Source: an uncultured Bacilli bacterium
GTDB taxonomy: Bacteria; Bacillota_I; Bacilli_A; RF39; UBA660
Assembly (NCBI GenBank): GCA_944358115.1
Contig: CALVQH010000002.1
Coordinates: 1,353-65,352, forward strand
DNA length: 64,000 nt
Reading direction: 5' to 3'
Every line of letters starts with the position of its first letter. Positions within the stretch are counted from its first letter, which is position 1. This document shows, piece after piece, positions 6,978 through 64,000 of this stretch. A program made the position numbers and the translations under genes. Below the pieces are notes generated by a model that was given only the letters and a program-made list of their open reading frames with translations, was not told the origin of the DNA and ran no database searches.

Positions 6978-7006
6978 AAAAAAAAGATACTATTTCTAGC
7001 ATCTTT
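6977..7006 (-). terminator. Rho-independent terminator of the ABC exporter operon
   Basis: Minus-strand hairpin AAAGATGC...GTATCTTT (one mismatch) followed by T9 (plus-strand A-run 6977-6985). It overlaps the stop codon at 7005-7007. Confidence 0.55.
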
Positions 7007-32934: not shown

Positions 32935-33976
32935 AAATTCCCCCTTCTGTTATATTACCTTGATATTTTTCGAACCCAAACTGTACATATTCCATGAAAT
33001 CCATGTAAATTCCTTTATCATTTACAACGTCAATATGTAAATGAGGTCCCGTACTCCGACCAGTAGTTGAAGTTAAACCTAGCAAATCATTTCTTTCTAC
33101 TCTTGTACCTTCTCTAATACCATATGGCATACTCATATACTTAATGTGTCGATAAGTTACTATTAGACCATTGTCGCACTTGACTGATATATAATTACCA
33201 GTTGCATTTTTAGATTCATTGTAGGACAAATCATTATTTTGTGTCATAATCACTTCATCAATTGTTCCGTTACATACTGAATAAAATTCAGTTCCAATGG
33301 GTACAGCAAAATCCCATCCAGAATGAAAATTAGCAGAGGCTTGTTCCTCCTCTGTTAAATCTAAATTTACTTCTCTATTTTCAAAAACAAAAGAAGTAGT
33401 AGTAAAGTCTTGTTCTAAATCAAATGGAAATGAAAACGGAAGATATGGATAATCTTCAGTATAATCATCTGAAGTCGCCACATCTTTATCTAATACATAA
33501 CAAAGATTTAAAGCCTCAATTTCAACGCCATTTTCATTTGTTCCACTTTCAATTGTATATTCTGGTAAATCTTCATTTTCTTTTAATTCTTTACAAACAG
33601 TTTTAATCGGTTTCATTTGCCTAGATTGCACATTTAAATTTGCCAAATAAGCCTCTTTCCATGTTTCATCAGATAGCGTTGTAACATCTAAAACATTATT
33701 TGTTCTTTGTAAATAAAATACAAGTCTTTCTAAACTAACATATCCGTTGGCAACCATAAGTTCATCTAGCAGTAATCTATATCGCTGGGCATAGATCTGA
33801 TTATTTACAACTGCTGACATCCCCCTATAATCTCCAGCTAAATTATTCGCACTCTCATATCCGATATTTACTCCAAAAATAGCCGCAATTAATGAAATTA
33901 CGATTACAAAAAAACCAACTACTCCAATTAGGATGCACACAATTTTAATCGTCAATAATTTCTTGAGTAATTTCAT
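32915..33976 (-). CDS. membrane-anchored M23-family peptidoglycan endopeptidase (conjugation cell-wall hydrolase)
   Basis: N-terminal TM, with M23 motifs HSGWDFAVPIGTEFYSV and TGPHLHIDV. Confidence 0.85.
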   Translation of the reverse strand: MKLLKKLLTIKIVCILIGVVGFFVIVISLIAAIFGVNIGYESANNLAGDYRGMSAVVNNQIYAQRYRLLLDELMVANGYVSLERLVFYLQRTNNVLDVTTLSDETWKEAYLANLNVQSRQMKPIKTVCKELKENEDLPEYTIESGTNENGVEIEALNLCYVLDKDVATSDDYTEDYPYLPFSFPFDLEQDFTTTSFVFENREVNLDLTEEEQASANFHSGWDFAVPIGTEFYSVCNGTIDEVIMTQNNDLSYNESKNATGNYISVKCDNGLIVTYRHIKYMSMPYGIREGTRVERNDLLGLTSTTGRSTGPHLHIDVVNDKGIYMDFMEYVQFGFEKYQGNITEGGIYGRKIS

Positions 33977-39807: not shown

Positions 39808-40956
39808 TTAAATTCTAATCGTATCACATTTTTGCGATTTATTTCCAGCATTATCAATTGCCGTTGCACAGAAGGTTCTGCCAGTTGATTCTTGCAAATA
39901 TAAAACATTAGTGAATACTCTTGATTGAGTTTCATGAATTGTTGAACCACTACCATTTTTATAAGGTTCAATCCACATCTGATATTTTTGAATACCAGTT
40001 CCATTATCATAAGCATTTATCGTAACACGAATATTCCAGCCAGCTGCTGGTCCTTTATCTGGATTATAATATCCTAGGTTTTCAACTGTAAAACTGGTAA
40101 TTGTAGGTGCAATATTATCATACCAGCTAGGATTAATTACCAAATTTCCGTTTACTGTCCAAGTTTGATCTCTAAATGAGGTTACACTATATCCATCTCG
40201 ATCATAAACATATACTCTAACTTTAGAACCATAGTTAACAGAGTTATTATAGTAATCGGTAACCCTATTAGCCACTAGAACTCCGTCAATCCAAACCGTA
40301 AAAGTAAAACCATTTAACCCAGAAGCATATGAAACATTCTGAATAATCGAATTAATATCTACTGAATATTTTTTTGCTTTCCAGTTAGCAGTAAAAGTTT
40401 TATTTCCAGTTGAATTAGTTATTGTTAAATTAGTTGTCGGTGTACTTACACCAGTACCAGTCCAACCAGCAAAATCATATCCAGTCCGAGTAGGAATTGG
40501 TAAAGTAAAAGTTTCTTCTATATTGTAACTAGTTTTAGGATTGCTTAAAGTACCACCATTCAAATTGTACTGAATAGTATAACTTTCTACACCCCAATTA
40601 GCATAAAGCAATTGGTTATTAATACTCTCTACATTATTAATTGAAGAAGAATATTTAATTTCACCATTCAAAGATGTACTATACCCTAAAAAATCGTATC
40701 CACTTTTTATAGGTGTAGGTAAAACAACGTTGTTATTGTCAATAATAACATTATTTTCATTATACTTTCCACCATTTGGATTTATTTTTAATTGATAATC
40801 AATCGTTTTTATATTATTAGTAATAGAATCCATTGTTGTAAAAGATGCAAAAGTTGATGATAAAGGTAAAATAATAGCTAGTAAAAGAGATGATATTTTA
40901 AGTACTTTTTTCAAATTTTGCGCCCTCTTTCTTTTTATGTTGTTTATAAATATCAT
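39808..40956 (-). CDS. secreted protein with SipW-type signal peptide and Listeria-Bacteroides (InlB B-repeat) modules
   Basis: The signal region ends LSSTFASFTTMDSITNNI. Repeats GYDFLGYS...ANW and GYDFAGWTG...ANW. Overlaps the sipW gene by 59 nt. Confidence 0.65.
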   Translation of the reverse strand: MIFINNIKRKRAQNLKKVLKISSLLLAIILPLSSTFASFTTMDSITNNIKTIDYQLKINPNGGKYNENNVIIDNNNVVLPTPIKSGYDFLGYSTSLNGEIKYSSSINNVESINNQLLYANWGVESYTIQYNLNGGTLSNPKTSYNIEETFTLPIPTRTGYDFAGWTGTGVSTPTTNLTITNSTGNKTFTANWKAKKYSVDINSIIQNVSYASGLNGFTFTVWIDGVLVANRVTDYYNNSVNYGSKVRVYVYDRDGYSVTSFRDQTWTVNGNLVINPSWYDNIAPTITSFTVENLGYYNPDKGPAAGWNIRVTINAYDNGTGIQKYQMWIEPYKNGSGSTIHETQSRVFTNVLYLQESTGRTFCATAIDNAGNKSQKCDTIRI

Positions 40957-42055: not shown

Positions 42056-42697
42056 TTAATAATTTTCTGTATTAATTAATTTAGCAGTAATTACTATCTG
42101 CTTAGTTTTATCTTTTTGATCACAAGTAGTTAAAATTAAATAACTCTCTTGCTCTAATTTAGAAATTGTAATTGTTCCATCTTTGTCTTGATATTCTATT
42201 TTCACAATTTCATATTCATATTTTAATCCTTGATAATAAATATAAGCATTATCATTTATCTTTAACTTATATAAGTTTCTAAAAAAAGCATATCGTCCTG
42301 TTCCTGAATGAGCTGCCAAAACTAGATTTCCGTTTTTTATATTAGGCATATCTGATTCTTCTAAAATCTCTACATTTTTAGAAATTGTATTTAAAGAACT
42401 ATTTTTTTCAAAAAAGCCTTTTTTTAAATTAATAGTTGGAATTTCTAAAACCCCTAAATATTTTTCACTTATAGATAAATCATTAGAAGTTTTAGTTTCT
42501 GAATTATCTGCTTGTACATTTTGATATTCGTTAGTTGTGCTTTCAATATACAAGTCTATCAATTTAGATTCTTGTTTCTCATATTGATAATCTAGTAATG
42601 TTTTTACAACAATGATACCTATACCTATGGCAATAAGAAAAGAGCCTATTATAAATAAGCTCCATTTCTTAATTCTTTTTCTTTTTAACAAAGCCAT
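42056..42697 (-). CDS. sortase-family transpeptidase (atypical: no Arg after the catalytic Cys)
   Basis: N-terminal TM, His motif LVLAAHSG and Cys motif LILTTCD. The remaining C-terminus DQKDKTKQIVITAKLINTENY contains no arginine. Confidence 0.7.
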   Translation of the reverse strand: MALLKRKRIKKWSLFIIGSFLIAIGIGIIVVKTLLDYQYEKQESKLIDLYIESTTNEYQNVQADNSETKTSNDLSISEKYLGVLEIPTINLKKGFFEKNSSLNTISKNVEILEESDMPNIKNGNLVLAAHSGTGRYAFFRNLYKLKINDNAYIYYQGLKYEYEIVKIEYQDKDGTITISKLEQESYLILTTCDQKDKTKQIVITAKLINTENY

Positions 42698-51856: not shown

Positions 51857-52807
51857 TTATAATGTTGCACTAACTCCTTTCATGTTATCAAAATATCCAC
51901 TTATAGTTGAATTATTAAATTTAAACACTCCGCCATAGCCACCACTATTAAATTTAAATTTTAGAGCATCCGAAGAAGAAATCCTTTGTTGAGAATGTTG
52001 ATAAGATGCGTTGACAGTTACTGTACTATTTGGATATGATGCAATATTTCCCATTAAAGTAAAATCATAACCAACATTTTGCCCAACAACTACGATGCCA
52101 ACTCCTCCTTCTGATTCATTACAAACATTTACTGTTGCATATAATTGCATTGCAACTGCTACTCCGCGATAAGAAAGTGGTATTATTTCTTCATGTTTCC
52201 AAGCCGTAGATAATTTGTCAAATTCATAGTTACGTGTAACAGTATTCATATAACCAGCACAAGCCAAATTAGGATTACCAATGTATTCAGTAGCTTTTTG
52301 AATTGCACTAGCTTGAGTAATTCCCATACCATCAACTAAATAAAAACCAAACAAATCGAAACTTTTAACTTTTGGCACCTTTTTCCAATGTAATTTTGCT
52401 ACAGCGACTCTAGCTGTGGGATTAGTTAAATGATTACTTAAAGTTAAAGTTAATTTTTTATAATTTGTTTCATGGCTACTCGCTAAAGGAACAATATCCG
52501 AAGAACCATTATATTCCTCCTCGGTTATTTCTTGAGTTTGAATGTTACTATAACCAGAAGGTGTATATACTTCAACATCTTTAAAATATTTAGTTACTGT
52601 AACTTGTTCTCCAACAACAAAATCTTTATAATCATTAAAGTCACTTTCACTTAAATAGATAATATCATCATCTGTTAAACCTAAATTTTTTAAATTATTA
52701 TATTCATCTGTAGTTAGTTCTCTGTCTATATTAACATTTGTAATTGCATCAACATTTGGTAAATAAATAAAAAACATTAAAATTAATAAAAAAACACTTT
52801 TTTTCAT
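51857..52807 (-). CDS. secreted protein, unknown function (316 aa)
   Basis: Signal peptide MKKSVFLLILMFFIYLPNVDA. No anchor motif seen. Confidence 0.65.
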   Translation of the reverse strand: MKKSVFLLILMFFIYLPNVDAITNVNIDRELTTDEYNNLKNLGLTDDDIIYLSESDFNDYKDFVVGEQVTVTKYFKDVEVYTPSGYSNIQTQEITEEEYNGSSDIVPLASSHETNYKKLTLTLSNHLTNPTARVAVAKLHWKKVPKVKSFDLFGFYLVDGMGITQASAIQKATEYIGNPNLACAGYMNTVTRNYEFDKLSTAWKHEEIIPLSYRGVAVAMQLYATVNVCNESEGGVGIVVVGQNVGYDFTLMGNIASYPNSTVTVNASYQHSQQRISSSDALKFKFNSGGYGGVFKFNNSTISGYFDNMKGVSATL

Positions 52808-52882
52808 CTTTCACATTCCTTTCCAAATATTTTTTATTAACTATTTCATAAATTATTACATAGCTATAACCTCCATTCGTAG

Positions 52883-52981
52883 TTAAAAACTATGTTGGAA
52901 GAAGAATATAAATATGATGAGTACTGCTACTATACCAACTAATATGATTATATCATGCTTTTTTATTAAAGTAAACTTATT
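52883..52981 (-). pseudogene. N-terminal remnant (32 codons, no start codon) of a paralogue of the 5176..6504 gene
   Basis: Own translation NKFTLIKKHDIIILVGIVAVLIIFIFFFQHSF*, against MKFEILKKSHLKRNIIIGVVAVLIISAIVLNF of the intact gene. The DNA shares GTAGCAGTACT. AAT replaces the ATG and a stop lies upstream. Confidence 0.4.
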
Positions 52982-53417
52982 TTATTTCTAAATATTTAAA
53001 TTTATTTTTAGGTAATTTACGTTCTATAAATTCTATTATTTTGTTTGAAAAATAAAATATAGCCACACTAAAATTTTATAGTATTCATACATTCAAATAA
53101 AAAAGTCAAAAATAAAATCAACTCAATATTGATTTTATTAATAGCTTACAAAATATAGTTCCCTACCCACCTACATTGTATAAGAAATACTTAATAATAA
53201 CTAATTGAACTTTTTTGTATATTTATTTTAAAAGCATTTAAAAAGAGCAGTTTGTTTTTTCTTCTTATACTAACCCAATCAAGATATGCAAATTTATGGT
53301 ATGGACTTAAATTTTTAATCTTGATTAATCTTATTATACCACAAAGGTCGGTGTCAATGTCAAAAAACTCAAATATTTTTACAAAAATGTAAAATCATAA
53401 TTAGAGGAAGTGGTATA

Positions 53418-53891
53418 ATGAGAATAAATACTAATATAGGCGAATCACTAAAAAATATACGCAATTATTTTGGATATACTCAACAAGAAATAGCTGATCA
53501 AATTAATATAAAAAGATCTTTATATTCTAATTACGAAACTAATGATTGCTTAATTCCATTAAAAAATTTAATTAAACTAGCTAATTTCTATAAAATTACA
53601 GTTGACTCATTACTCGCATTTACAGATTTAGAAAAAAGCAATAAAGACATTGAATTAAATTCTGAAATAATAAGTAGAAATATTAAAGCTATAAGGCAAG
53701 AATTAAATTTAAGTCAAAAGAAACTAGCAGATTTATTAAATATAGGCAAGAGTACAATCGTTGATTATGAAAAGCAAAAATACCAAATCAGCACCGCTTA
53801 TATTTACGATTTATCACGTCTTTCTGGAATATCAGTAGATTGGATTTTAGGTATTCAAAAAAACAAATATATAATAGCCAAAAACAAATAA
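53418..53891 (+). CDS. double-HTH XRE-family regulator (paralogue 1)
   Basis: 157 aa with two HTH_3 units: LKNIRNYFGYTQQEIADQINIKRSLYSNYE and IKAIRQELNLSQKKLADLLNIGKSTIVDYE. Confidence 0.8.
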   Translation: MRINTNIGESLKNIRNYFGYTQQEIADQINIKRSLYSNYETNDCLIPLKNLIKLANFYKITVDSLLAFTDLEKSNKDIELNSEIISRNIKAIRQELNLSQKKLADLLNIGKSTIVDYEKQKYQISTAYIYDLSRLSGISVDWILGIQKNKYIIAKNK

Positions 53892-53904
53892 ACTCAAAGT
53901 TTTG

Positions 53905-54354
53905 CTATATTAAATTGGCAAGAATTGATAATTCCAAAAGAATATATTTTATCACTTTTACTATATTTTCTTTTGGAATATCATAGTCAATCTTCAATTC
54001 TAAATCCCTTAAAGTAATGGGCAAAACAAGCATTCTATCATTTTTTCCCAAAGCTTTATAGCACAAATCATTTACAATTAACCATACTTCATCAAGTAAG
54101 TCATCCTCCGACTTAGCATCTTCATTATATTGAAAAAACATAATAAGATCTTCACATTCTTTATCCATATTTTCAAAATTTGAAATATCCGCTTTGTTCT
54201 TTATTAATTGTAAGTAAAAATTTATTGCCTCAACTATTTCTTCTAAGGTATAACTTTCCAAAATTTTTTCAAGATAAAATTTTTTTTGAGATTTTAATGA
54301 AAATTTTTTTATCTCATTAAAATTCTTACTCAAGTCCCTCATAATTTTTTCCAT
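53905..54354 (-). CDS. hypothetical protein (149 aa)
   Basis: ORF convergent with XRE paralogue 1. Confidence 0.55.
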   Translation of the reverse strand: MEKIMRDLSKNFNEIKKFSLKSQKKFYLEKILESYTLEEIVEAINFYLQLIKNKADISNFENMDKECEDLIMFFQYNEDAKSEDDLLDEVWLIVNDLCYKALGKNDRMLVLPITLRDLELKIDYDIPKENIVKVIKYILLELSILANLI

Positions 54355-54394
54355 TTAATAAAACTCCTTTATAATTATATATTTTTTATAAAAA

Positions 54395-54769
54395 TTATTT
54401 ATTATTCACAAAATCATCTTCGAAGATTATAATATTTTGAAGAAGCTCTTGTTTTATTATTTTATTTTTTGGTATTGTTGCTCCCTGCTTTTTAGAATAA
54501 AAATAATCAAGCAACTGGTTTAAACAAAGGTTTAATTCTTTTGATAGTCCCTGCTCCCTACAATGGTTAGCAAAATCTTCTAAATAAAATAAACATCTTA
54601 TTGTTTCTTCATTTAAAGAACTTATTTTTGTATTTCCATCTTTAACTTCATTTACTTTAGTTACTATTAATTGATGGTTCTTGTTTTCAATTTTAACTCC
54701 TTTAGTTGTAGCTGAATCAAATATTATAATAGTATCAGATAGTTTCAAATCTAAGCATTTTTCTTCCAT
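54395..54769 (-). CDS. hypothetical protein (124 aa)
   Basis: ORF divergent from XRE paralogue 2. Confidence 0.55.
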   Translation of the reverse strand: MEEKCLDLKLSDTIIIFDSATTKGVKIENKNHQLIVTKVNEVKDGNTKISSLNEETIRCLFYLEDFANHCREQGLSKELNLCLNQLLDYFYSKKQGATIPKNKIIKQELLQNIIIFEDDFVNNK

Positions 54770-54870
54770 TTCTAATCCTCCAATGTATATATTATAACAT
54801 TTAATATCGCATTTGTCTGTATTTGTTAATAATTTTTTTAATAAATGAGAAAATTATCTTGGTGATATAT

Positions 54871-55323
54871 ATGTTTCCAAAGATTAGAGAATTAAGAAAA
54901 AGCAATAATTTAACACAAAAAGATATGGCAAGTAAATTAGAAGTAACGCAACAAACTTATCAAATGTTTGAATCATCAACTAAGATCATCCCATTAAAGC
55001 ATTTAATAAAATTATGTAATTATTATAAAGTATCGCTTAATTATATTAGTGGACTTACTAATACCAATAGTCAAACAAATTTGCACATTAATTTAGATCA
55101 AATAGAAATTGGGAAAAGAATCAAGTTAATCAGATTAAAATGCAATTTATTGCAAATAGATCTTGCGAGATTATTAAACACTTCTCAATCTCAAATTAGT
55201 AGTTATGAACATGGTACAAGACTCATAAGCACTGCTTTTGCATACCAAATATGTAAAACATACAATATATCTTTAGATTGGCTTATAAATGGAACTGGCA
55301 AAGTATTTTTAAATGATAATTAA
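54871..55323 (+). CDS. double-HTH XRE-family regulator (paralogue 2)
   Basis: Start moved to MFPKIRELRK (GGTGA RBS). Two HTH_3 units: IRELRKSNNLTQKDMASKLEVTQQTYQMFE and IKLIRLKCNLLQIDLARLLNTSQSQISSYE. Confidence 0.8.
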   Translation: MFPKIRELRKSNNLTQKDMASKLEVTQQTYQMFESSTKIIPLKHLIKLCNYYKVSLNYISGLTNTNSQTNLHINLDQIEIGKRIKLIRLKCNLLQIDLARLLNTSQSQISSYEHGTRLISTAFAYQICKTYNISLDWLINGTGKVFLNDN

Positions 55324-55363
55324 TAGAAGTTAATTCAAATTGTATAAATAACTTCTATTTTTG
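55324..55363 (+). terminator. Rho-independent terminator after XRE paralogue 2
   Basis: TAGAAGTTA (55324-55332) / TAACTTCTA (55349-55357) followed by T5. Confidence 0.5.
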
Positions 55364-55698
55364 TTTAAAATTAATTATAAATTAAAAATTATGCTTTTAT
55401 AATAATTTTGAAGCAAAATATCATTCCTTAAAACCAAAATACCACATTAAAGATTAAATCAATGATATAATAAATGAGCAAGTATACGTAGTACAATATA
55501 CTTGCTATTAATTTTCAAGGAGTGGTGAAGTTTTCCCCACTCTTATGTTATATATTAGCCCCTAAATATTTCATAGGAACCATATTAATTCTATCATAAG
55601 ATTGTTTCTGTGTCTATATTTTTCTTCTTGTGAATATAATTTTCTTAGAATTGTTATTTAGTAGTATAAAATGTAGTTGTTCCAAAGGAGAAAACAAT

Positions 55699-56166
55699 AT
55701 GCAAATTATTAATACGACAATTCATGAGAGGTTAAAATTTACTAGAATATATTTTGGATATTCCCAAACTGAATTAGCAAAAATGCTTGATGTTAAACAA
55801 AGTGTATATGCTAACTGGGAGTTAAATAAAAGATTAATTCCTTTAAGGCATCTTATATCTTTAGCAAATATTTATCAAATTAATGTAGACTATTTACTTG
55901 CACTAACGGATATACAAATTCATCAAAAACCTATAAATGTAGATAAAGTTATTATAAGTCGCAACTTAAGAATTTTATTATATGAATTAAAAATTAATGT
56001 TAAAACATTTGCCAAAAATCTAAATGTAAGTTGCTCTCCTATTTATAATTATTTAAATTGTAAAAATCTGATACCAACATACGTCTTATATGATATAGCT
56101 CGTAATTATAATATTTCGACGGATTGGATATTAGGTAGAACTTCGCAAAAAAATATATTAAAATAA
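55699..56166 (+). CDS. double-HTH XRE-family regulator (paralogue 3)
   Basis: Start moved to MQIINTTIHE (AAAGGAG RBS). LKFTRIYFGYSQTELAKMLDVKQSVYANWE, plus a second degenerate HTH unit. Confidence 0.75.
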   Translation: MQIINTTIHERLKFTRIYFGYSQTELAKMLDVKQSVYANWELNKRLIPLRHLISLANIYQINVDYLLALTDIQIHQKPINVDKVIISRNLRILLYELKINVKTFAKNLNVSCSPIYNYLNCKNLIPTYVLYDIARNYNISTDWILGRTSQKNILK

Positions 56167-56199
56167 TAAAAGAGCAAAAGCCCTTTTATTTAATAGAGA

Positions 56200-56802
56200 T
56201 TATGAGTAGATTATTTTAGATAATCTTTTTTTGTTACCAGAATAACAACTAATTATAAAATCTAAAACTTCCAACTCCAATTCATCTAATTCACTAAATG
56301 ATTTATCTTTTAAATGTATGCGACATGTTTCCTCTAAAAAAATATTAAAATTAAATATATTCTTATTTAATTTTTTTGAATATTTTTTTACACACATGAT
56401 GACTTCAATCTCATATTGAAATTGTTTCTCCATAACTAACTTATATATAATAGCAGCTACAAAATTTAGATCAAATTCAGGACTGATAAAAAGATAAGCA
56501 ACTAAGTCTTGGCTCAGTAATTCTAAACTAAAAATCATATTAAATAAAAAATCTAGGCCTGCTTTATTAAAAAAAGCCACAAAAGAATCAATAATAAATT
56601 TTTCAAATTCTTTAGTAAGTTCTTGTTTAGTTAGCACATAAATTTCAGTTAAATCTTTCCACATACTATATGAACTAATTAGATTGTACTTTTGCATATT
56701 ATACATTATTTTAATTCCTTTTTCTAAAGCTTCTAAGTTAAAGTCGTTATACTTTAAAAAAATAAAATCTTTAATCAATTGTTGTTCTTTTCTTAATTTC
56801 AT
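56200..56802 (-). CDS. hypothetical protein (200 aa)
   Basis: ORF convergent with XRE paralogue 3. Confidence 0.55.
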   Translation of the reverse strand: MKLRKEQQLIKDFIFLKYNDFNLEALEKGIKIMYNMQKYNLISSYSMWKDLTEIYVLTKQELTKEFEKFIIDSFVAFFNKAGLDFLFNMIFSLELLSQDLVAYLFISPEFDLNFVAAIIYKLVMEKQFQYEIEVIMCVKKYSKKLNKNIFNFNIFLEETCRIHLKDKSFSELDELELEVLDFIISCYSGNKKRLSKIIYS

Positions 56803-56830
56803 AATAATCCTCCTTTCCAGGAAGATATTA

Positions 56831-56866
56831 TATAAAAAAGATTGTAAAATTCATTATACAATCTTT
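56831..56866 (-). terminator. Rho-independent terminator of the ABC-F/APH operon
   Basis: AAAGATTGTA (56837-56846) / TACAATCTTT (56857-56866), followed by a T-run on the minus strand. Confidence 0.55.
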
Positions 56867-57642
56867 TATAAATACAATTCCATCATTAATAAATAGTAGG
56901 TTATTTTAAAATCATCTCGTTTTATATTCAAAACCTCATAAAACTTATTTACATATTCCTGCCCATAGTTTCTTAAAATAGATTTTTCACATATAGCTAA
57001 ATCAAACCATTTATCTGCTATACCACTCTCACCCACATCAATAAAGCCAGAAAACTTATCTTTGATGGCAAATATATTAGGCAAACTAGTATCTCCATGT
57101 GAAAAAACTAATTCTTCTGGAAAACGATTACTTTGCAAATATTGTAATAAATTTTGTACTGTTCCGAACCTTTTTCTTGTTTCTGGACTTAGAGATAAAT
57201 TATTTACTAATCCTTTACTTACATTATTTTCAATTAGAGATAACTTATATTCATTTGAAACATCAAATGGACAATTTGATATATCTACAGAAAATATATT
57301 TTGAAAAGCATCTTTTAAAACTAGTATAGCAATATCAGGATTATTTATATAATATTCATCACACAACATTTTTCCTGGCATTTCCTCCGTAATTAAATAA
57401 TCATTTCCATACTCTTGAACAAAGTCAATTATTTTAGGTACTGGTAATTTTGTAGATAACCACATCAACTTTTTATATTCCTGAAGCAATTTATTTTCTT
57501 TCATTATTTTTAAATAAAAAGTTTTATTCTCTTTTTTTATTCTAACAACTTGTGAATCAGAACAACCTATACTTATTTCTTTTAACTCTGAATCATTTAT
57601 AATTTTTTTTATTGTAATTGGCAACGGATATTTAAAACTCAT
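56866..57642 (-). CDS. aminoglycoside 3'-phosphotransferase-like kinase (APH(3') family)
   Basis: 258 aa. FSHGDTSLPNIF (HGDxxxxN catalytic loop) and SGFIDVGESGIADKWFDLAICEKSI are collinear with the APH(3')-III motifs FSHGDLGDSNIF...SGFIDLGRSGRADKWYDIAFCVRSI. Confidence 0.8.
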   Translation of the reverse strand: MSFKYPLPITIKKIINDSELKEISIGCSDSQVVRIKKENKTFYLKIMKENKLLQEYKKLMWLSTKLPVPKIIDFVQEYGNDYLITEEMPGKMLCDEYYINNPDIAILVLKDAFQNIFSVDISNCPFDVSNEYKLSLIENNVSKGLVNNLSLSPETRKRFGTVQNLLQYLQSNRFPEELVFSHGDTSLPNIFAIKDKFSGFIDVGESGIADKWFDLAICEKSILRNYGQEYVNKFYEVLNIKRDDFKITYYLLMMELYL

Positions 57643-57643
57643 T

Positions 57644-59311
57644 TTATTTCCTACCCTTTAAATTAGTATCATTGTTCAGAGATAATGTTCTTGATTTTTG
57701 TTCTTTATAATAATCATAATTTCCTAAATAATTAACAAAATGCTGATCTTCAATATTTTCAATTCTTTCAGCTAATTGATTAATAAAATATCTATCATGT
57801 GATATAAAGAATAATGTTCCTTCATATTCTTTTAGTGCCTCTTCTAACATCTCTTTAGTATCTATATCTATATGGTTTGTCGGTTCATCTAATATTAATA
57901 AATTAGCTTTCTTTTGGATTAATTCAAATAACTTTAATCTCACTTTTTCTCCACCAGATAATGATCCAACTCTTTTAAATACATTTTCACCATAGAATAA
58001 AAATTTGGCTAGAGAAGCTCTTAAATGAGTTTCTGTTCCATCAAATGCTTTTCTAGCAACATCTAATACTGTTGCACTTTCATTTTCAAATTTAATTTCT
58101 TGTGGAATATATCCAATAGAAACTCTACTTCCGATCTTTATTTCACCCTGACAAATAAAATCCGAATTAGGATCCAAAACTGCCTTTATAAAAGTAGATT
58201 TTCCAGCACCGTTCTTTCCCATTAAGCAAACTTTTTCACCATATCTTAATGACATTTCAGCACCATCTAATAATACTTTATCACCAGCAACCAGCCCTAA
58301 GTCATCTACTACCAAAACATCTTTACCAGATCTCCCTTGAATTTCAAAATCCAAAGGTAATGTTTTCTTGGTTTCTGGTTTATCCAACATTTCCATCTTT
58401 TCTAGTCGTCTTTCAATACAAGCTGCACGTCTAAAAAATCTTGGATTGTCGCCTTGAGTTCCCCACTCTCTTAATTTTTTTACCGTATTTTTCATTGCTT
58501 CAATTTGCTTTTGCTGATTTTTATATTCTTCAAACTCTGCTAAAGCTCTTCTTTCACTTTCTTGCAAATAATACGTATAATTTCCATGATAAACATCAGC
58601 TTTTCCCTTATCAATAAATATGGTCTTTGTAGCCACTTTATCCAAGAAATATCTGTCATGTGAACTAATAATTATTGTTCCTTTATAACTAGTTAAAAAA
58701 TGTTCAAACCATTCTAAAGTGTCAATATCCAAATGATTTGTAGGCTCATCCAATAAAAGGATATCAGGATTGCTAATAATTAGGGAGGCTAAATTAACAA
58801 TTGTTTTTTCACCACCTGAAAGGGTGTTAAAAGTTCTACTCAACATTTCATCAGAGATTTTAAATCCATTACAAATTTTACTTACTTTTTCATCGATTTC
58901 ATATCCACCCATTTCTTGAAAATAGTCTTGTAATTTTCCATAAGATGTTAGTATGGAATCCATTTTATCTGGTGAAATCGTAGCTAATTTCTGTTCGCAT
59001 TCTCTCATTTTCTTTTCAACTTCAAATAATTTTTGAAAATCTTTCACTAATAAATCTTTAACAGTATAGTCATCTGGAACCTTTGGAGGCATCTGAGACA
59101 AAAAACCAATGGTAGCACCTTTTCTTGTTGTAACAATTCCACTGTCTAATTTTTCTTCTCCAACTATTATTTTAAAGATAGTAGTTTTCCCACATCCATT
59201 TGGACCTATTAAAGCAATTCTCTCTCCTGTTGTTGCTTCTAAATCAAAATCATCTAAAACATTTTTAAAACCAAAGCTCTTTTTCGCACCATTTAGTGTA
59301 ACTTCTATCAT
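57644..59311 (-). CDS. ABC-F family ATPase (possible ribosome-protection / antibiotic-resistance type)
   Basis: Start moved to MIEVTLNG (GAGAGGTG RBS). Two NBDs (GPNGCGKTT/LSGGEKT/LLLDEPTNHLD and GKNGAGKST/LSGGEKVR/LILDEPTNHID), no TM domain, and a charged inter-domain linker. The stop lies 1 nt from the APH start. Confidence 0.85.
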   Translation of the reverse strand: MIEVTLNGAKKSFGFKNVLDDFDLEATTGERIALIGPNGCGKTTIFKIIVGEEKLDSGIVTTRKGATIGFLSQMPPKVPDDYTVKDLLVKDFQKLFEVEKKMRECEQKLATISPDKMDSILTSYGKLQDYFQEMGGYEIDEKVSKICNGFKISDEMLSRTFNTLSGGEKTIVNLASLIISNPDILLLDEPTNHLDIDTLEWFEHFLTSYKGTIIISSHDRYFLDKVATKTIFIDKGKADVYHGNYTYYLQESERRALAEFEEYKNQQKQIEAMKNTVKKLREWGTQGDNPRFFRRAACIERRLEKMEMLDKPETKKTLPLDFEIQGRSGKDVLVVDDLGLVAGDKVLLDGAEMSLRYGEKVCLMGKNGAGKSTFIKAVLDPNSDFICQGEIKIGSRVSIGYIPQEIKFENESATVLDVARKAFDGTETHLRASLAKFLFYGENVFKRVGSLSGGEKVRLKLFELIQKKANLLILDEPTNHIDIDTKEMLEEALKEYEGTLFFISHDRYFINQLAERIENIEDQHFVNYLGNYDYYKEQKSRTLSLNNDTNLKGRK

Positions 59312-59353
59312 TTTTTCACCTCTCTCATAAGATTGCTTTTTCAATCGATACAT

Positions 59354-59381
59354 ATTATAACATATTTTATTAAAAAGTTAA
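59354..59381 (-). promoter_or_regulatory. candidate extended -10 promoter for the ABC-F/APH pair
   Basis: The minus strand reads TTAACT-N16-(TGT)TATAAT (-35 at 59381-59376, -10 at 59359-59354), about 40 nt upstream of the ABC-F ATG. Confidence 0.4.
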
Positions 59382-59394
59382 ACTTTATTAACCA

Positions 59395-60378
59395 TTAATT
59401 ATTAATCATTAATTTTTTTAACTTAGATATTTTTGATTTATAGTTAGTATTAGATACTCTAGTCCTTAATAAAATAATATTAGATTTTATTTTACAATTA
59501 TTAATAATAATTGCTTTTGTTTTCACAACTGGTAAAGAATCAACTTCGATTTTATGTGGTAATTGATATTCAATTCCACAAGTATCTAATAGTTTTAAAA
59601 AATAATTGAAATATTGCTCATTTTCTATCCAAATTGGAAACCTATGCCAAGTATTAAGATAATTATTTTGAATAAAATAAATATTCTTATTGTCTTTAAA
59701 TAAATCCATATAATATTTAGCAACTTTCCTTTGTTTATTCACAATTTTATCAGCATTATCCATCAACTTTTTTATATTAATTTTATTACATAACGGATAA
59801 GCATATGAATATAATATATTTTTACCTTCCCTACTAACATTATCGCAAAAATCAATTTTATTTAAAATACTCTCATTGTTTGTCATTATAGCTCCACCAA
59901 TTCCATAAGACAAGGGTTTTGTTTTTCCAAAAGAGGTAACAATATAATCACTATAGTTACCTACTTTGTAATTTTTTTGGCTTATGTCCCATGATTGTGC
60001 TATATCTTCAATTATTTTAATATGGGGATAATTATGTTTGATTTTTGATATATTATTGACTAATCCAAATTGATGAACTAACAGAATACATCCTACTTGA
60101 TATTGTTGTAATACTTGCACTACTTCTTCATTAGTAAATATCATATCTTTTTGAGGATGAATTATTACAGGTGTTAAGCCCAATTTGATAATTGTATTTA
60201 TTATTGAACTACATACTTCACTTGATACTATTACACCAGTATTTTTGGGAAAATTGCAATCTATTAAAGCTAATTCTAAAGCTAATGTCCCCGAATAAGT
60301 TATAACACCTATACTTTTATCGAATTTTTGTGCCAAATATTTGCCCAATTTTAAATTATCATTTCGCAAAACAATCAC
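59395..60378 (-). CDS. DegT/DnrJ/EryC1/StrS-family PLP aminotransferase-like protein (short form)
   Basis: 327 aa with YSGTLALELAL, IIEDIAQSW and TSFGKTKPLSYGIGGAI (PLP-lysine context). Confidence 0.65.
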   Translation of the reverse strand: MIVLRNDNLKLGKYLAQKFDKSIGVITYSGTLALELALIDCNFPKNTGVIVSSEVCSSIINTIIKLGLTPVIIHPQKDMIFTNEEVVQVLQQYQVGCILLVHQFGLVNNISKIKHNYPHIKIIEDIAQSWDISQKNYKVGNYSDYIVTSFGKTKPLSYGIGGAIMTNNESILNKIDFCDNVSREGKNILYSYAYPLCNKINIKKLMDNADKIVNKQRKVAKYYMDLFKDNKNIYFIQNNYLNTWHRFPIWIENEQYFNYFLKLLDTCGIEYQLPHKIEVDSLPVVKTKAIIINNCKIKSNIILLRTRVSNTNYKSKISKLKKLMINN

Positions 60379-61103
60379 CTACTATCTAACTTTACATGAT
60401 ATATATGTTTATGGGTAAAATTCTTGTTTCCATAACCATAATCAATTTTTATAATTTTTAAATTATTATTTTTCAACAATTTATTAAACATTTTCTCGTT
60501 ATGATAATAATATTGCTCAGTTTCTAATAATTGTATCTTTTGTTGTTCTAAATTATAATTAACATTAAATTCAATATATTTATCATATCTTTTAGCAGAA
60601 TAATAAACAGAAACGTTATCTTTAACTTCTTCACTATAATCCTTAAATAAAAGAATATTTTTTTGCTTTTGTTTTGACTCAAAACTCTTAGATATGTCAA
60701 ACAATATTATTGTGTCAGTAGAAATAATCTTTATAAGTTGTTTTAAAATGCGATCAATTTCAATTTCGTTATTTGAAAATTGAATTGTACTATACGGAAA
60801 TACTATCATATCAAAATATTCTTTTGTATCAAAAATCTTTATATCACAACATATAGTTTTTAAATTTTTTGATTTTTCTCTTAATACTTCTAATCTAGCT
60901 TCATCAAAATCTAAAGCAATGACATTTGCAATATCGCTTAAAGGAATAGCTACTCTTCCCGTACCAGCACCAACAATTAATACATTTTTAGAATTGTAAT
61001 GTTTTATTTGATTTTTATAATACTGAATATCATCGTTTTGATCATGTAACATGTGCTTATTATAAAAATCATACATATATGCTAATGATTTCTTTTTATT
61101 CAT
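60375..61103 (-). CDS. class I SAM-dependent methyltransferase
   Basis: 242 aa with motif I VLIVGAGTGRVAIPL. 4-nt overlap with the downstream gene. Confidence 0.75.
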   Translation of the reverse strand: MNKKKSLAYMYDFYNKHMLHDQNDDIQYYKNQIKHYNSKNVLIVGAGTGRVAIPLSDIANVIALDFDEARLEVLREKSKNLKTICCDIKIFDTKEYFDMIVFPYSTIQFSNNEIEIDRILKQLIKIISTDTIILFDISKSFESKQKQKNILLFKDYSEEVKDNVSVYYSAKRYDKYIEFNVNYNLEQQKIQLLETEQYYYHNEKMFNKLLKNNNLKIIKIDYGYGNKNFTHKHIYHVKLDSR

Positions 61104-62065
61104 TATTTATCACCATATTCATACAAACCAGAATATATTTTTTCAATTTCATTATTTTTCCAATGAAGATTATAATATCTTTCTTGATAAGCACCAAAAG
61201 ACATATTAAAATCCTCTATACTTTCGTATACAGATCCTTCAAAATCCAAATATTGAACTTCTGTATTCTCTTTCAAATATTTTATCATGTTAAAATAAAT
61301 AGTAGTTATAGCACCTTTATTTTCATAATACGAATATAAGATATATGCAGTATGTTTATCCCATACTAAATGCACCCCTCCTAAAACTTCATCATTATTT
61401 TTTAAAACAAAACTCATTCCTCTATTTTGAGAAATACTTTCTAAAATATATTTTTTAACAAAAGTGGATGAGGAGGGAAAATTGTGTTTTTTTTCCCATT
61501 TCATTGCCTTATCGCAATCAAAATATTTTAGTTCATTATCACAAACCATTTTTGCTCCTATTTTGCTCATTTTTTTTATTTCTTTTTTTCTATCAGAGCC
61601 AAATTCTTTATACAATTCATCCATACTTTTATGTAAATCTAATTTATATGTATATCTAACTTCTGGGATAAATCCTGATCTTATGAATGGCATTATGTCA
61701 ATGATTTTAGGATCGATAGAAAAACTTATAGTAGTAAAATTGTTTTTTAAATATTGCGCTAGCAAATATTCGATATCACGGATTAACTTTATTTTATGGC
61801 GTTCTTTAGTAGGTAATTGCAATAATATAGGTCCACCATAAGGAATATACATAGTACTTTGAGATAACTTTTTTGGATTTTTTTCATCAATAAATAATGG
61901 CATAAATCCAATTATTTTTCCTTTTTCATTCAATATCACTAACATATAGGTAACTTTTTTTAAAAATAGAAACCAATCGTAGGCAAAACAAGTCCCATTA
62001 AAACTATTATCTATTAATTGATTCAAATCAATAAAACTATCTAGCCTTTTTAGTTCAATAGTCAT
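61103..62065 (-). CDS. FemAB/FemX-like (Acetyltransf_6-type) aminoacyl/acyl transferase
   Basis: 320 aa. The C-terminal LDFEGSVYESIEDFNMSFGA resembles the FemX-family .DFgG.....gl..FK..FG. motif, and the size fits. Confidence 0.5.
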   Translation of the reverse strand: MTIELKRLDSFIDLNQLIDNSFNGTCFAYDWFLFLKKVTYMLVILNEKGKIIGFMPLFIDEKNPKKLSQSTMYIPYGGPILLQLPTKERHKIKLIRDIEYLLAQYLKNNFTTISFSIDPKIIDIMPFIRSGFIPEVRYTYKLDLHKSMDELYKEFGSDRKKEIKKMSKIGAKMVCDNELKYFDCDKAMKWEKKHNFPSSSTFVKKYILESISQNRGMSFVLKNNDEVLGGVHLVWDKHTAYILYSYYENKGAITTIYFNMIKYLKENTEVQYLDFEGSVYESIEDFNMSFGAYQERYYNLHWKNNEIEKIYSGLYEYGDK

Positions 62066-62074
62066 ATAATCACC

Positions 62075-62917
62075 TCATTTACTAACCAATATATGGTATC
62101 TATCATTTTCACAATTCTTTAACGAATCATAGGTTGAGTTTCTTCTTCCCCAAAAATCTATATCTACTATTCCTTCCATTTTTTCTAATTTTTCTAAATG
62201 GTTATATAAGCAAAAGAAACCAGCATAATATTTTCTACCTAAATCAGAAGCCCCCCACTTTACTGCATACCATTGTTTTGTTAAATTGTTTTTAAAAAAC
62301 AAAGAATACGCTAACGGGATATTATCTTTATATATAACATTTAAAAATGAATCTTCATGATTATTAAAAAGAAATTTTTGATATTGTAAATCTTCTCTAT
62401 CTAAACTTTTCATATTACTATTTTCTCGATATTTCCAAGAACACTCATCAATTTTTAAAACATCATCCCACAATTCACATACATTATTGCTTTTCGAATC
62501 CAAAAAAGCAAAATTATTTTTATTTTTTTGATAATTTTTATAATTTTTTTTGGTTTGCATACCACATTCATTATTCAAATAATTTGCAATATTGTTTAAG
62601 AGCTTTAATTTAGGAGCACTCCACGAATCAATAACTTTTAAATTCACATTATTTTCATCACACCATACTTTTATGTTCTCATATAGATTTTGATCAATAT
62701 AATAAAATTGGAATTTAATTCCTTTATTTATATATTTTTTTACCTCATCATAATTTTGTATATTAATATGAAAATCGAAAAAGTGTTGGCATCGAAAAAC
62801 ACCGTTAATTTTTGCAAAGATTAAATCCCCAATTTCCAAAATATCTTTTTTTAAAAACCGATCATAAACTGCAGACTTCCAGAATGGTGATAATGTAAAA
62901 TTACCAGCAACGCACAT
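62075..62917 (-). CDS. GNAT-fold / FemAB-like (CelD-BcsL type) acyltransferase
   Basis: 280 aa. The C-terminal half (WYAVKWGASDLGRKYYAGFFCLYNHL...VDIDFWG) resembles the Acetyltransf_6 family. Weak call. Confidence 0.4.
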   Translation of the reverse strand: MCVAGNFTLSPFWKSAVYDRFLKKDILEIGDLIFAKINGVFRCQHFFDFHINIQNYDEVKKYINKGIKFQFYYIDQNLYENIKVWCDENNVNLKVIDSWSAPKLKLLNNIANYLNNECGMQTKKNYKNYQKNKNNFAFLDSKSNNVCELWDDVLKIDECSWKYRENSNMKSLDREDLQYQKFLFNNHEDSFLNVIYKDNIPLAYSLFFKNNLTKQWYAVKWGASDLGRKYYAGFFCLYNHLEKLEKMEGIVDIDFWGRRNSTYDSLKNCENDRYHILVSK

Positions 62918-64000
62918 TTTTATATTCCTCTAATTTTGAAACAATATATTTTAAATGTTTTCTTTTTAATTCAGCTGATAAATTAAACCAAGCAACTCTT
63001 TTAAATAAACTTTCTGCTTTCTCACACTTATTTGGAATATATTTTGTAAGAGAATATGGAAAATTATTTTTGTCCCAAGAATTTTGAAATTTAAAAGTAT
63101 CATATTTATCAATTAAATTACTACAATAGATATTAAACCCTATACCATGATTATTCATATACTTAATAAAATTATCACATTCTTCTTTTGTTGAGAAAAC
63201 AATTCCTAAACTCATTTTAAAAGAATTAGCCCCCTTTACAAATGGGCGAATTTTATAAAAATTTGTATCTATTCTATTAATTAAATATTGATATTTTCTT
63301 TCCTGAAAAGAAATAATTTTATCTATCTTTTTTAACTGCTCTAAAGCAATAGCACTTTGAATTTCAGTAATTTTAAAATTCTCACCAAAAAAAGTTTTTG
63401 TATTCTCCCATGTTGGATAACTGCAACCAACACGATATCCACCATTATCATGATACATTTTAGCTCTCATATATAAATCTTTATTATTAGTTACAAAAAA
63501 GCCACCCTCACCGCAAGTAATGGTCTTTCCAGCCTGTAAACTGAAAGCACCACAATCACCAAATGTTCCTACTTTTTTTCCATTTAATTCTGCTCCTAGT
63601 GCTTGAGCTGTATCTTCTATAACTTTTAAATTATGTTTTTTTGCTATTTTCATAATTTCTTTCATATTAGCTGGAGATCCTTGCATATGTACTACTATAA
63701 TTGCTTTCGTTCTTTCAGAAATATTCTGTTCGATTGATTTAGGATCTATATTCATCGTTTCATCAATATCAACAAATTTAGGAACAGCACCAACCGCCAG
63801 AATATTACTAGCCGATGCAATAAAAGTAAACGAAGGAACTAAAACTTCATCTCCAATACCAATGCCTAAAGCAATGCAGCTAAGTTTTAAAGCTGTGCCA
63901 CCATTAGAACATGCTAATACGTATTTGACATTAAGATATTCTTTCATAGCTTCTTCAAATTGATCTGTCATATATTGTAGATTAGGGCCTTGATATCTAA
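62901..64000 (-). CDS. DegT/DnrJ/EryC1/StrS-family sugar aminotransferase (5' end beyond window)
   Basis: ACSNGGTALKLSCIAL, VPSFTFIASA, IEDTAQALGA and FSLQAGKTITCGEGGF (PLP lysine). The reading frame stays open upstream of the listed Met (RYQGPNLQYMTDQ...), so the gene continues past 64000. Confidence 0.85.
   Translation of the reverse strand, partial: RYQGPNLQYMTDQFEEAMKEYLNVKYVLACSNGGTALKLSCIALGIGIGDEVLVPSFTFIASASNILAVGAVPKFVDIDETMNIDPKSIEQNISERTKAIIVVHMQGSPANMKEIMKIAKKHNLKVIEDTAQALGAELNGKKVGTFGDCGAFSLQAGKTITCGEGGFFVTNNKDLYMRAKMYHDNGGYRVGCSYPTWENTKTFFGENFKITEIQSAIALEQLKKIDKIISFQERKYQYLINRIDTNFYKIRPFVKGANSFKMSLGIVFSTKEECDNFIKYMNNHGIGFNIYCSNLIDKYDTFKFQNSWDKNNFPYSLTKYIPNKCEKAESLFKRVAWFNLSAELKRKHLKYIVSKLEEYKNVRCW

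Follow-up and report, generated by a model that had tools for sequence, protein, structure and literature searches.

The stretch analysed here (the window) comprises 64,000 nucleotides of a contig from an uncultured Bacilli bacterium, and its end, positions 56866-64000, contains the distal half, seven genes, of a conserved operon block with 12 genes over ~11 kb. As argued below, the product of this gene cluster is probably a peptidyl nucleoside antibiotic based on cytosine, of the blasticidin S/mildiomycin/gougerotin class, and the cluster carries its own immunity genes. A gene-by-gene check of the window placed seven genes in this part, all on the minus strand, in agreement with an earlier, sequence-only reading that had described seven same-strand genes with tiny gaps or overlaps. 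In transcriptional order, with the promoter-like sequence that lies among them, they are:

62901..64000 (cut by the window edge), minus strand: DegT1, a DegT/DnrJ/EryC1-family pyridoxal phosphate (PLP) aminotransferase (Pfam PF01041, E = 3.5e-88)
62075..62917, minus strand: predicted tandem-GNAT protein of 280 amino acids (aa), from a fold search of its AlphaFold2 (AF2) model
61103..62065, minus strand: predicted tandem-GNAT protein of 320 aa, FemX-like, from a fold search of its AF2 model
60375..61103, minus strand: S-adenosylmethionine (SAM)-dependent methyltransferase (Methyltransf_25, 1.4e-8)
59395..60369 (alternative start 60378), minus strand: DegT2, a short divergent DegT-family PLP enzyme of 324 aa (PF01041, 8.6e-29)
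59381..59354, minus strand: internal sigma-70-type promoter, TTAACT-N16-TG-T-TATAAT, in the 83-nt gap 59312-59394 before the ABC-F gene
57644..59311, minus strand: ABC-F ATPase of 555 aa (two ABC_tran domains and ABC_tran_Xtn)
56866..57642, minus strand: APH(3')-family O-phosphotransferase of 258 aa (NF033068, 221 bits against a cut-off of 205)

The junctions among the biosynthetic genes are, in order, a 17-nt overlap, a 9-nt gap, a 1-nt overlap and ~5 nt, and the G+C content across the cluster is ~25%. DegT1, correctly recognised in the earlier reading as truncated at the window edge, is 397 aa (1194 nt) when complete: its 3' 1100 nt lie inside the window, its first 94 nt lie outside with codons 1-31 past position 64000, and the whole gene is found at 8824-10017 of the metagenome contig L001. 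It carries the lysine motif SLQAGKTITCGEGG. DegT2 retains the Schiff-base (PLP-binding) lysine motif SFGKTKPLSYGIGG and occupies the same position in orthologous loci. The Pfam matches listed above bear out the earlier assignment of a SAM methyltransferase and a second DegT-like enzyme, and the top NCBIfam match of the methyltransferase is the daptide amine N-methyltransferase model (3.2e-11, under its cut-off). A megablast search of plasmid and phage collections returned no match to 56800-64000.

Upstream half and conservation of the block

Contig L001 was located by look-up of the 280-aa protein in metagenome contigs. It is 99.992% identical to window 52075-64000 over 11,926 bp, with window position 64000 corresponding to L001 position 8918, and because the two are near-identical over their overlap, L001 is used here to extend the window. 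Its genes ahead of DegT1, tightly packed and in the same orientation, encode a 387-aa protein, a 349-aa radical SAM/SPASM enzyme, a 156-aa protein and a 305-aa PHP protein; the next gene upstream of the PHP gene encodes a LysR regulator, beyond which lie genes for a hybrid histidine kinase, an AMP-binding ligase and a DNA methylase. The whole block, LysR to APH, spans L001 4276-16052, of which 4.6 kb lie past the window edge. The extension brought in genes that point to a cytosine nucleoside pathway, and no flippase, polymerase or teichoic-acid genes were found in it.

A synteny scan was performed with one genome per GTDB species (30 loci), in which the cluster proteins were placed by tblastn. 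Wherever the contig was long enough, the order LysR-PHP-glycosidase-rSAM-GT-DegT1-280-320-MT-DegT2-ABCF-APH was kept (glycosidase, the 156-aa protein; rSAM, the radical SAM enzyme; GT, the glycosyltransferase-like 387-aa protein; MT, the methyltransferase), across ~27 GTDB species and at 43-86% protein identity. The hosts, known as metagenome-assembled genomes (MAGs) from the guts of humans, rabbits, goats and other animals, carry the labels Bacilli, Tenericutes, Erysipelotrichaceae or Mycoplasmataceae. The flanks differ, with SMC, Peptidase_S11 and deformylase genes at one locus and Ddl and SAM synthetase genes at another. Three Clostridia MAGs retain the glycosidase, rSAM, GT, DegT1 and both GNAT genes in a rearranged order; two of the three have the PHP and APH genes, and the ABC-F gene is visible in L035, the sole contig that reaches far enough. 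In this Clostridia variant, the PHP gene has moved beside an inverted APH gene.

The clusters vary in part of their gene content. An extra 295-aa radical SAM gene (CX3CX2C) occurs in some variants (L008 14845-15732, L015, L025, L028, L017 5285-6157 and L026 1257-2108), a Ham1/ITPase-like gene stands just before the ABC-F gene at L010 15853-16452, and L014 and L031 are without the methyltransferase. This variation in radical SAM, Ham1/ITPase-like and methyltransferase genes suggests a family of related products. Beside the cluster, L001 144-4226 encodes the AMP-binding (acyl-CoA-ligase-like) enzyme and the hybrid histidine kinase (HisKA-HATPase-REC-Hpt); at least five other species (L022, L024, L025, L027 and L032) have homologues of the two (25-51% identity) next to the cluster, on one side or the other. 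They may be accessory parts, for example in carboxylate activation or sensing.

Two cultured Paenibacillus strains, P. periandrae PM10 (L038 2669-17438) and P. faecalis Marseille-P3787 (L039), have the glycosidase/rSAM/GT-like/DegT core only. With the cluster proteins as tblastn queries, neither Fem-type genes nor an APH gene were found in L038 or L039, and L039 matched the ABC-F protein only weakly and in part (26% identity, 40% of the query). In P. periandrae, a Pfam scan identified tailoring genes for an aldo-keto reductase, a xylose-isomerase-like TIM barrel, a class III aminotransferase, a CPT-like (chloramphenicol-phosphotransferase-like) kinase, a GNAT protein and an arginase-family protein.

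Predicted biosynthetic enzymes

The enzyme with the clearest relatives is encoded upstream of the window edge:

L001 6183-6653: 156-aa CMP N-glycosidase homologue (PDB matches, 130/156 residues)

Its PDB matches are BcmB (4jen, 7e-23), MilB (2e-16) and BlsM (4e-16), by which it is an unambiguous homologue of CMP N-glycosidases with the nucleoside 2-deoxyribosyltransferase fold; CMP N-glycosidase is its predicted activity. The 387-aa protein had no Pfam or PDB match in sequence searches. However, TIGR04467 (hydroxymethylcytosylglucuronate/cytosylglucuronate synthase) was the sole family match in 30/30 of its diverse homologues (best E = 6.8e-15) and, with up to 74 bits, in 10/10 sampled distant relatives; the wider family numbers 1145 representatives. 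The match is colinear along the model, but all scores (22.6-74 bits) are far under the curated cut-off of 300, and thus it indicates remote homology and not membership.

Gene fusions provide further evidence on the 387-aa protein. In P0427, a CMP-glycosidase-like domain with 34% identity to the cluster enzyme (E = 4e-14) is fused to a domain resembling the cytosylglucuronic acid (CGA) synthase, and P0331 joins a CGA-synthase-like domain to a DegT aminotransferase domain. The fusions assign the 387-aa protein a functional place after the release of cytosine and before transamination. Length and match position point to further candidates of both kinds, namely P0352, P0362 and P0389, with a DegT domain (P0331-type, ~760-780 aa), and P0425, P0436 and P0444, which would combine CMP-glycosidase-like and GT-like domains (P0427-type, ~520-555 aa).

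The radical SAM enzyme, searched against the PDB as a single sequence, matched SkfB and BlsE about equally, whereas a profile of 10 orthologues ranked BlsE first (7vob, 6e-21), ahead of SkfB (1e-14) and BtrN (1.5e-9). The single sequence scored ~61 bits against the TIGR04466 cut-off of 400. The invariant residues C255, C274, C276 and H279 align with C...CxCxxHR[DE] of BlsE, a stretch that is not significant by itself (score 0.0, conditional E = 0.021).

In the characterised pathways, MilB/BlsM convert CMP to cytosine, MilC/BlsD join cytosine and UDP-glucuronic acid to form CGA, and the radical SAM enzymes MilG/BlsE and the transaminase MilD turn the C4'-OH into an amine (PMC3715490; PMC12464687). 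We propose that DegT1 is the C4' transaminase of the nucleoside sugar, in the role of BlsH/MilD. The glycosidase, the CGA-synthase-like GT, the BlsE-like rSAM and DegT1 would accordingly constitute the predicted enzyme set for the cytosyl-aminohexose core of blasticidin S/mildiomycin.

The closest solved homologue of the glycosidase, BcmB, belongs to the bacimethrin (bcm) pathway of another low-G+C Firmicute, Clostridium botulinum, which raises the question of whether the product is instead a free modified pyrimidine, a cytosine-derived, bacimethrin-like antimetabolite, with the ABC-F protein in a regulatory or sensing role like that of LmrC. The bcm pathway also has a methyltransferase and a kinase. 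Moreover, ABC-F proteins in biosynthetic gene clusters (BGCs) can act as signal transducers, as LmrC does (PMC8546547). However, the block has no thymidylate-synthase-like hydroxymethylase, the enzyme that bcm has; conversely, bcm is without a GT, radical SAM, DegT, tandem-GNAT or ABC-F protein, and the GT-like protein, rSAM, DegT and two tandem-GNAT proteins have no bacimethrin-type role. The fusions likewise link glycosidase to GT and GT to DegT. We regard a free pyrimidine antimetabolite as improbable.

The candidates for adding the amino acids of the proposed nucleoside are the 280- and 320-aa proteins. In sequence searches, the 280-aa protein had no match in Pfam, NCBIfam or PDB, and the 320-aa protein had a sub-threshold Acetyltransf_1 (GNAT) match only (E = 0.0016), with an empty PDB search. 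Neither window protein matched the FemAB, Acetyltransf_6 or DUF2156 models in Pfam/NCBIfam; among the matches listed for homologues of the 320-aa protein, PF13480 was present in 2/120. Both structures were predicted by AF2 from homologue alignments, and the folds were searched with Foldseek against the PDB. The 280-aa model is confident (predicted local distance difference test score, pLDDT, 92.8; predicted template-modelling score, pTM, 0.89), and its top matches are the C-terminal (DUF2156; aminoacyl-phosphatidylglycerol synthase) domain of MprF, FemX and the aminoacyl-tRNA-dependent peptide synthases Sba18/Sbb17 (query template-modelling score, TMq, 0.66-0.67; E about 1e-6 to 3e-9). The 320-aa model is of moderate quality (pLDDT 73) and matched FemX best (1.9e-10), then Sbb17/Sba18 and FemA. 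The matched Sba18/Sbb17 structures are complexes with streptothrisamine, an amino sugar.

By these models, both proteins are predicted to adopt a double-GNAT, Fem-type fold. The earlier assignment of two Fem/GNAT (Acetyltransf_6)-like transferases thus holds for predicted structure and fold, but not at the sequence level, where no Pfam or NCBIfam model matched. Double-GNAT enzymes are known to load amino acids from aminoacyl-tRNA onto the amines of natural products, amino sugars included (PMC12945691). We propose that the 280-aa protein is an aminoacyl-tRNA-dependent, amide-forming transferase, and the 320-aa protein a second aminoacyl-tRNA-dependent transferase. BLASTP and hhalign detected no relationship between the two families, which argues that they are not recent paralogues.

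The ABC-F protein and the APH(3')-like kinase

The ABC-F protein comprises two nucleotide-binding domains and a linker, without a membrane domain, and is the best-conserved protein of the block (64-86% identity). The only model that it passes is NF000355, 'ribosomal protection-like ABC-F' (448.6 bits, cut-off 380). It remains under the cut-offs of the housekeeping equivalogs (EttA 387/599, Uup 378/900, YbiT 347/762 and YheS 285/917), and outside the named antibiotic-resistance (ARE) families Vga, Lsa, Msr, Sal, OptrA, CplR and the producer group, with 243-321 bits against 680-1450. The model for the producer proteins TlrC/CarA/OleB/SrmB gave 311 bits (cut-off 800).

A reverse search of metagenome contigs with the ABC-F protein revealed a bimodal distribution of identities. 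At 74% identity or above, the APH gene lies directly downstream in 16/16 metagenome loci, and the biosynthetic genes are present wherever the upstream sequence is long enough. The close clade is thus exclusively cluster-linked, and this, with the failed EttA, Uup, YbiT and YheS cut-offs, speaks against a housekeeping clade. The linker tip WGxxG-DNPRFFRRAACIE is kept in the cluster-linked clade and is not exclusive to it; neither linker length nor tip separates this clade from unlinked relatives. Among those relatives, ~20 human-gut contigs from an abundant species (L071-L095) carry a 54-55%-identical ABC-F at 7001-8558 in two open reading frames (ORFs) of 375 and 152 aa. The split was confirmed in L071 and appears to recur in the other contigs, whose locus lengths and match coordinates look the same; a pseudogene, a programmed frameshift or an assembly error common to all could explain it.

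The promoter that the sequence-only reading had placed in the 83-nt gap is present. In this AT-rich DNA such a match proves nothing by itself, since promoter-like matches are no commoner than in shuffled sequence (67 found, 66 expected). Conservation is more informative: in 14/14 diverged Bacilli-type loci, the extended -10 box TGNTATAAT is kept about 35-45 nt before the ABC-F start within an otherwise diverged spacer, and this is well beyond chance. The ribosome-binding site GAGAGGTG precedes the ATG at 59311, and we take this as the true start because the promoter puts the start of transcription downstream of the ATG at 59353. An Rfam scan of L001 detected no riboswitch or leader, and the 5' untranslated region of the ABC-F gene is only ~35 nt; the empty scan provides no evidence for attenuation control. 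With its own conserved extended -10 promoter, expression of ABC-F/APH immunity would be independent of the induction of biosynthesis.

We propose that the ABC-F protein is a ribosome-protection immunity factor. The ABC-F protein Ard1 confers narrow-spectrum self-resistance to nucleoside antibiotics (bioRxiv 10.1101/2022.12.05.519065). The ABC-F stop and the APH start lie exactly 1 nt apart, which suggests that the two genes are translationally coupled. Synteny, exclusive linkage and the conserved promoter together argue that ABC-F and APH form an integral immunity module and were not acquired by chance.

These same observations bear on the possibility that the locus is a surface-glycan or amino-sugar operon that makes no antibiotic and happens to sit beside acquired or housekeeping ABC-F and APH genes, as the sequence-only reading had offered. 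DegT, methyltransferase and Fem-type enzymes all occur in cell-envelope pathways, EttA is the nearest ABC-F among solved structures, and there is no conserved exporter. However, no Wzx flippase, Wzy polymerase, priming/initiating transferase or nucleotidyl-sugar synthase lies in the block or is conserved beside it. The ABC-F/APH pair is syntenic with the biosynthetic genes in every locus that is long enough, in varied chromosomal contexts, in a mobile element (see below) and in the rearranged L035; ABC-F relatives outside the cluster reach at most 58% identity, and the protein fails all housekeeping equivalogs. No insertion-sequence or transposon scar and no transposase lies between the ABC-F/APH pair and the biosynthetic genes, the junction being the conserved promoter. 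Given the synteny across ~30 species, we reject the surface-glycan operon as very improbable.

The earlier identification of an APH(3')-type kinase 1 nt after the ABC-F gene was also borne out, and the APH motifs quoted for it are present and conserved in orthologues. The protein passes the NF033068 APH(3') equivalog marginally (221.1 bits, cut-off 205) and aligns end to end with APH(3')-IIIa (7e-40). The catalytic HGDxxxxN and IDxG motifs are kept, as FSHGDTSLPNIF and GFIDVGE(S/C)G, in 15 orthologues. However, the acidic aminoglycoside-binding loop of APH(3')-IIIa is not kept: a hand count gives the loop a net charge of about -7 in IIIa, +3 in the window protein, and -3 and -2 in two orthologues. 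Furthermore, Met stands in place of D261, the C-terminus has one residue more than that of APH(3')-IIIa, and the scores against all numbered-subclass models are far under their cut-offs. The changed loop, D261 and C-terminus suggest a substrate other than classical aminoglycosides. The kinase would act on the cluster's own product or an intermediate, for which an amino-sugar nucleoside is the most economical candidate.

One option offered earlier, by analogy with butirosin, was an aminoglycoside or aminocyclitol pathway, in which the kinase would be classical producer self-resistance. Two DegT-family aminotransferases, the auxiliary-cluster-type C-terminus of the rSAM with BtrN among its PDB matches (1.5e-9), and the APH(3') equivalog cut-off that the kinase passes would all fit such a pathway. 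Against this, no 2-deoxy-scyllo-inosose synthase, other cyclitol-forming enzyme or inositol-phosphate synthase was found in L001 and its near-identical copies, L008/L009 and L010 (the other loci were probed only with the cluster proteins), and typical aminoglycoside glycosyltransferases were likewise not found there. The first committed enzyme, a predicted CMP N-glycosidase fused to a GT in relatives, would be senseless in an aminocyclitol pathway, and the kinase is without the acidic aminoglycoside-binding loop. An aminoglycoside-like product is hardly credible on this evidence, and the butirosin analogy is likewise not supported. The alternative form of the same early proposal, an aminoacyl-nucleoside locus with self-resistance and a predicted ribosome-targeting product, gains support from the CMP N-glycosidase, GT and rSAM homologues and from the ABC-F/APH linkage.

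The 305-aa PHP protein resembles RNase RNM (2e-30) and 3',5'-nucleoside bisphosphate phosphatases (2e-27), under cut-off. It could be the partner phosphatase of the APH kinase or a supplier of CMP; its relocation beside the APH gene in the Clostridia variant favours the link to the kinase.

Proposed pathway, genomic context and known systems

Taken together, the most likely scaffold of the predicted peptidyl nucleoside is cytosine joined to an amino sugar that bears amino acids, and the following pathway is proposed. The LysR regulator would control the biosynthetic operon. The 156-aa protein, a CMP N-glycosidase by homology, would free cytosine from CMP, and the 387-aa GT, on the evidence of remote homology and gene fusions, would couple it to a UDP-hexuronate or UDP-hexose to give a cytosyl-pyranoside. 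The BlsE-like rSAM would then produce a 4'-keto sugar by dehydration (as BlsE) or oxidation (as BtrN), and DegT1 would transaminate the 4' position to a 4'-amine. The two proteins with the predicted tandem-GNAT fold would add amino acids from aminoacyl-tRNA to this amine and/or to each other's product. The methyltransferase is proposed to be an N-methyltransferase acting on an amine, and DegT2 may carry out a second transamination or sugar-tailoring step that installs or tailors a further amino group. Of the immunity proteins, ABC-F most likely shields the producer ribosome at the peptidyl-transferase centre, and the product or an intermediate is most likely inactivated by the APH(3')-like kinase through phosphorylation of a hydroxyl, with the PHP phosphoesterase as the candidate phosphatase partner of the kinase or, alternatively, in CMP supply.

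Several observations weigh against this pathway. The upstream half of the cluster was read in a near-identical contig rather than in the window, its hosts have yet to be cultured, and no compound has been described. At 22.6 and ~61 bits against cut-offs of 300 and 400, the matches to CGA synthase and BlsE are distant. The rSAM motif is CxxxCxFC, whereas CxxxCxMC is typical of BlsE, MilG and ArgF (PMC3715490), and the enzyme has additional conserved C-terminal cysteines; its chemistry may therefore differ from that of BlsE and could be dehydration, oxidation or decarboxylation. A gene for UDP-glucuronate supply is absent from the block, and no exporter is conserved in it among the gene-called loci. 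Because APH and PHP both appear to be cytoplasmic, a pro-drug cycle of kinase and phosphatase would be futile unless regulated. As for ABC-F, the closest solved structure is EttA (283 bits), followed by Uup, YheS and PoxtA, and the interdomain linker is short, of EttA length. Its relatives at 50-58% identity (~45 loci) have neither APH nor biosynthetic genes, and they likewise pass only the generic ribosomal-protection-like model.

In this genome, the cluster sits inside what appears from its gene content to be an integrative and conjugative element (ICE)-like conjugative element, whose components were noted within window 13056-46454:

13056-14933: large serine recombinase
16864-19176: type IV secretion coupling protein (TraG/VirD4)
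33945-36389: VirB4-like ATPase
39808-40956: Listeria-Bacteroides-repeat protein
42669-45668: SpaA/thioester-domain adhesin, 999 aa

G+C falls from ~0.30 to ~0.25 near 15 kb. By coordinate arithmetic, the 61-kb contig behind L001 would end close to the recombinase gene and start ~10 kb past the window. The element itself would have its left end near this recombinase gene and its right end more than 10 kb past the window. Two further features lie directly downstream of the APH gene:

56200..56802, minus strand: 200-aa ORF without a family match
56165..56190, minus strand: terminator-like hairpin and T-run

The ORF is present only in this ICE-borne copy and absent from all diverged loci; it is probably co-transcribed with the cluster, outside the conserved block. 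The hairpin likely ends the transcription unit, for which it is weak evidence because two such sites occur in 8.5 kb and 1.5 are expected by chance. On the plus strand, the region directly after the cluster encodes three paralogous double-HTH XRE/CI-like regulators (53418-53891, 54823-55323 and 55630-56166), interleaved with small minus-strand ORFs. A second small LysR-headed unit occupies 47612-51204 on the minus strand, with the LysR gene at 50341-51204, a 375-aa protein at 49131-50258 (CX3CX2C motif; weak Radical_SAM match, E = 3e-4) and a 515-aa NUDIX-domain protein at 47612-49159; this unit may be a further module of the element that modifies nucleotides.

To our knowledge, cytosine peptidyl-nucleoside antibiotics (blasticidin S, mildiomycin, gougerotin and amicetin) and their clusters have been characterised almost only from Streptomyces. 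The Streptomyces bls/mil/arg clusters share with the present one its predicted early logic, BlsM/MilB, BlsD/MilC, BlsE/MilG/ArgF and MilD/BlsH, and a SAM methyltransferase too. Unlike them, the cluster is without an arginine 2,3-aminomutase, an ATP-grasp ligase, a MilA-type hydroxymethylase and an MFS exporter, and it has a second DegT and a PHP phosphoesterase. Its immunity genes encode ABC-F and APH instead of an acetyltransferase, deaminase or exporter, its peptide assembly appears to rest on two unrelated tandem-GNAT proteins, and its hosts are anaerobic gut Bacilli of 25% G+C, with very low identity to the Streptomyces enzymes. In bls, leucylation of demethylblasticidin S is assigned to BlsK, a DUF2156-type leucyl-tRNA-dependent transferase. 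This aminoacyl-tRNA-dependent step has been proposed as self-resistance (PMC5572114).

The gougerotin (gou) cluster and the bagougeramines of Bacillus circulans follow the same predicted product logic, a 4'-amino-cytosyl-hexuronate with a short peptide and an N-methylated residue. In gou, oxidation is carried out by a nucleotide-dependent dehydrogenase rather than a radical SAM enzyme. The genes gouA, gouF and gouH together form 4-amino-CGA, according to a paper that assigns the oxidation to no particular gene (PMC12835213). Whereas gou uses CoA-activated amino acids and an N-acetyltransferase, we propose Fem-type, tRNA-dependent enzymes for the present cluster; gou also has an amidotransferase and an MFS exporter, which the cluster does not. 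A literature search limited to open-access papers found no paper on a bagougeramine BGC and no description of the cluster reported here.

The double-GNAT fold predicted for the window proteins is common to Orf11/Sbb17/Sba18 (streptothricin-type BD-12), PacB, VlmA and DhpH/DhpK; the likeness is one of predicted fold, with no sequence-level similarity to any of these enzymes. Among them, Orf11 acylates an amino-sugar amine with Gly-tRNA (PMC12945691). As for immunity, an ABC-F gene inside a nucleoside-antibiotic BGC is also seen for Ard1 (A201A), and the window protein differs from producer ABC-F proteins in standing outside the named ARE and producer families. Hygromycin A has the ABC-F protein Hyg28 with the O-phosphotransferase Hyg21, and in the StrA/StrK pair of streptomycin the kinase inactivates the producer's own antibiotic and the phosphatase removes the phosphate. 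In contrast to the Ard1, Hyg and Str systems, the kinase of this cluster is of APH(3') type and its candidate phosphatase is a cytoplasmic PHP protein that is not secreted.

A cytosine peptidyl-nucleoside BGC with self-resistance is thus known as a kind of system; what is new is the host group, the predicted two-enzyme, double-GNAT, tRNA-dependent assembly, the ABC-F and APH(3')-like (with PHP) immunity, and the conjugative carriage. Blasticidin-class compounds also act on eukaryotic ribosomes, and for this reason the product could act on gut fungi, protists or host cells. Tentatively, and with less confidence than we have in the compound class, we hypothesize that prevalent, uncultured low-G+C Bacilli in the guts of humans, rabbits, goats and other animals make a new cytosyl peptidyl-nucleoside translation inhibitor. 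Its peptide would be assembled wholly by tandem-GNAT enzymes from aminoacyl-tRNA, immunity would come from a new, antibiotic-specific ABC-F clade and an APH(3')-derived kinase repurposed for nucleosides (with the PHP phosphatase), the cluster would spread by conjugation, and fungi, protists or host cells would be possible targets.

The cluster is a recognisable, strongly diverged version of these systems in ~30 uncultured gut Firmicute species, human-gut MAGs included, with one copy on a conjugative element. The block is only ~11 kb and two cultured Paenibacillus species have the four-gene core, which makes the proposal amenable to testing. Resistome pipelines would currently label the APH(3')-like kinase as 'aminoglycoside resistance'. 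If the proposed pathway is true, the cluster would provide a new ribosome-targeting scaffold from obligate gut commensals, a new case of tRNA-dependent peptide assembly on an amino sugar, and two new resistance determinants, namely the ABC-F clade and the APH(3')-like kinase, whose substrate would not be an aminoglycoside.

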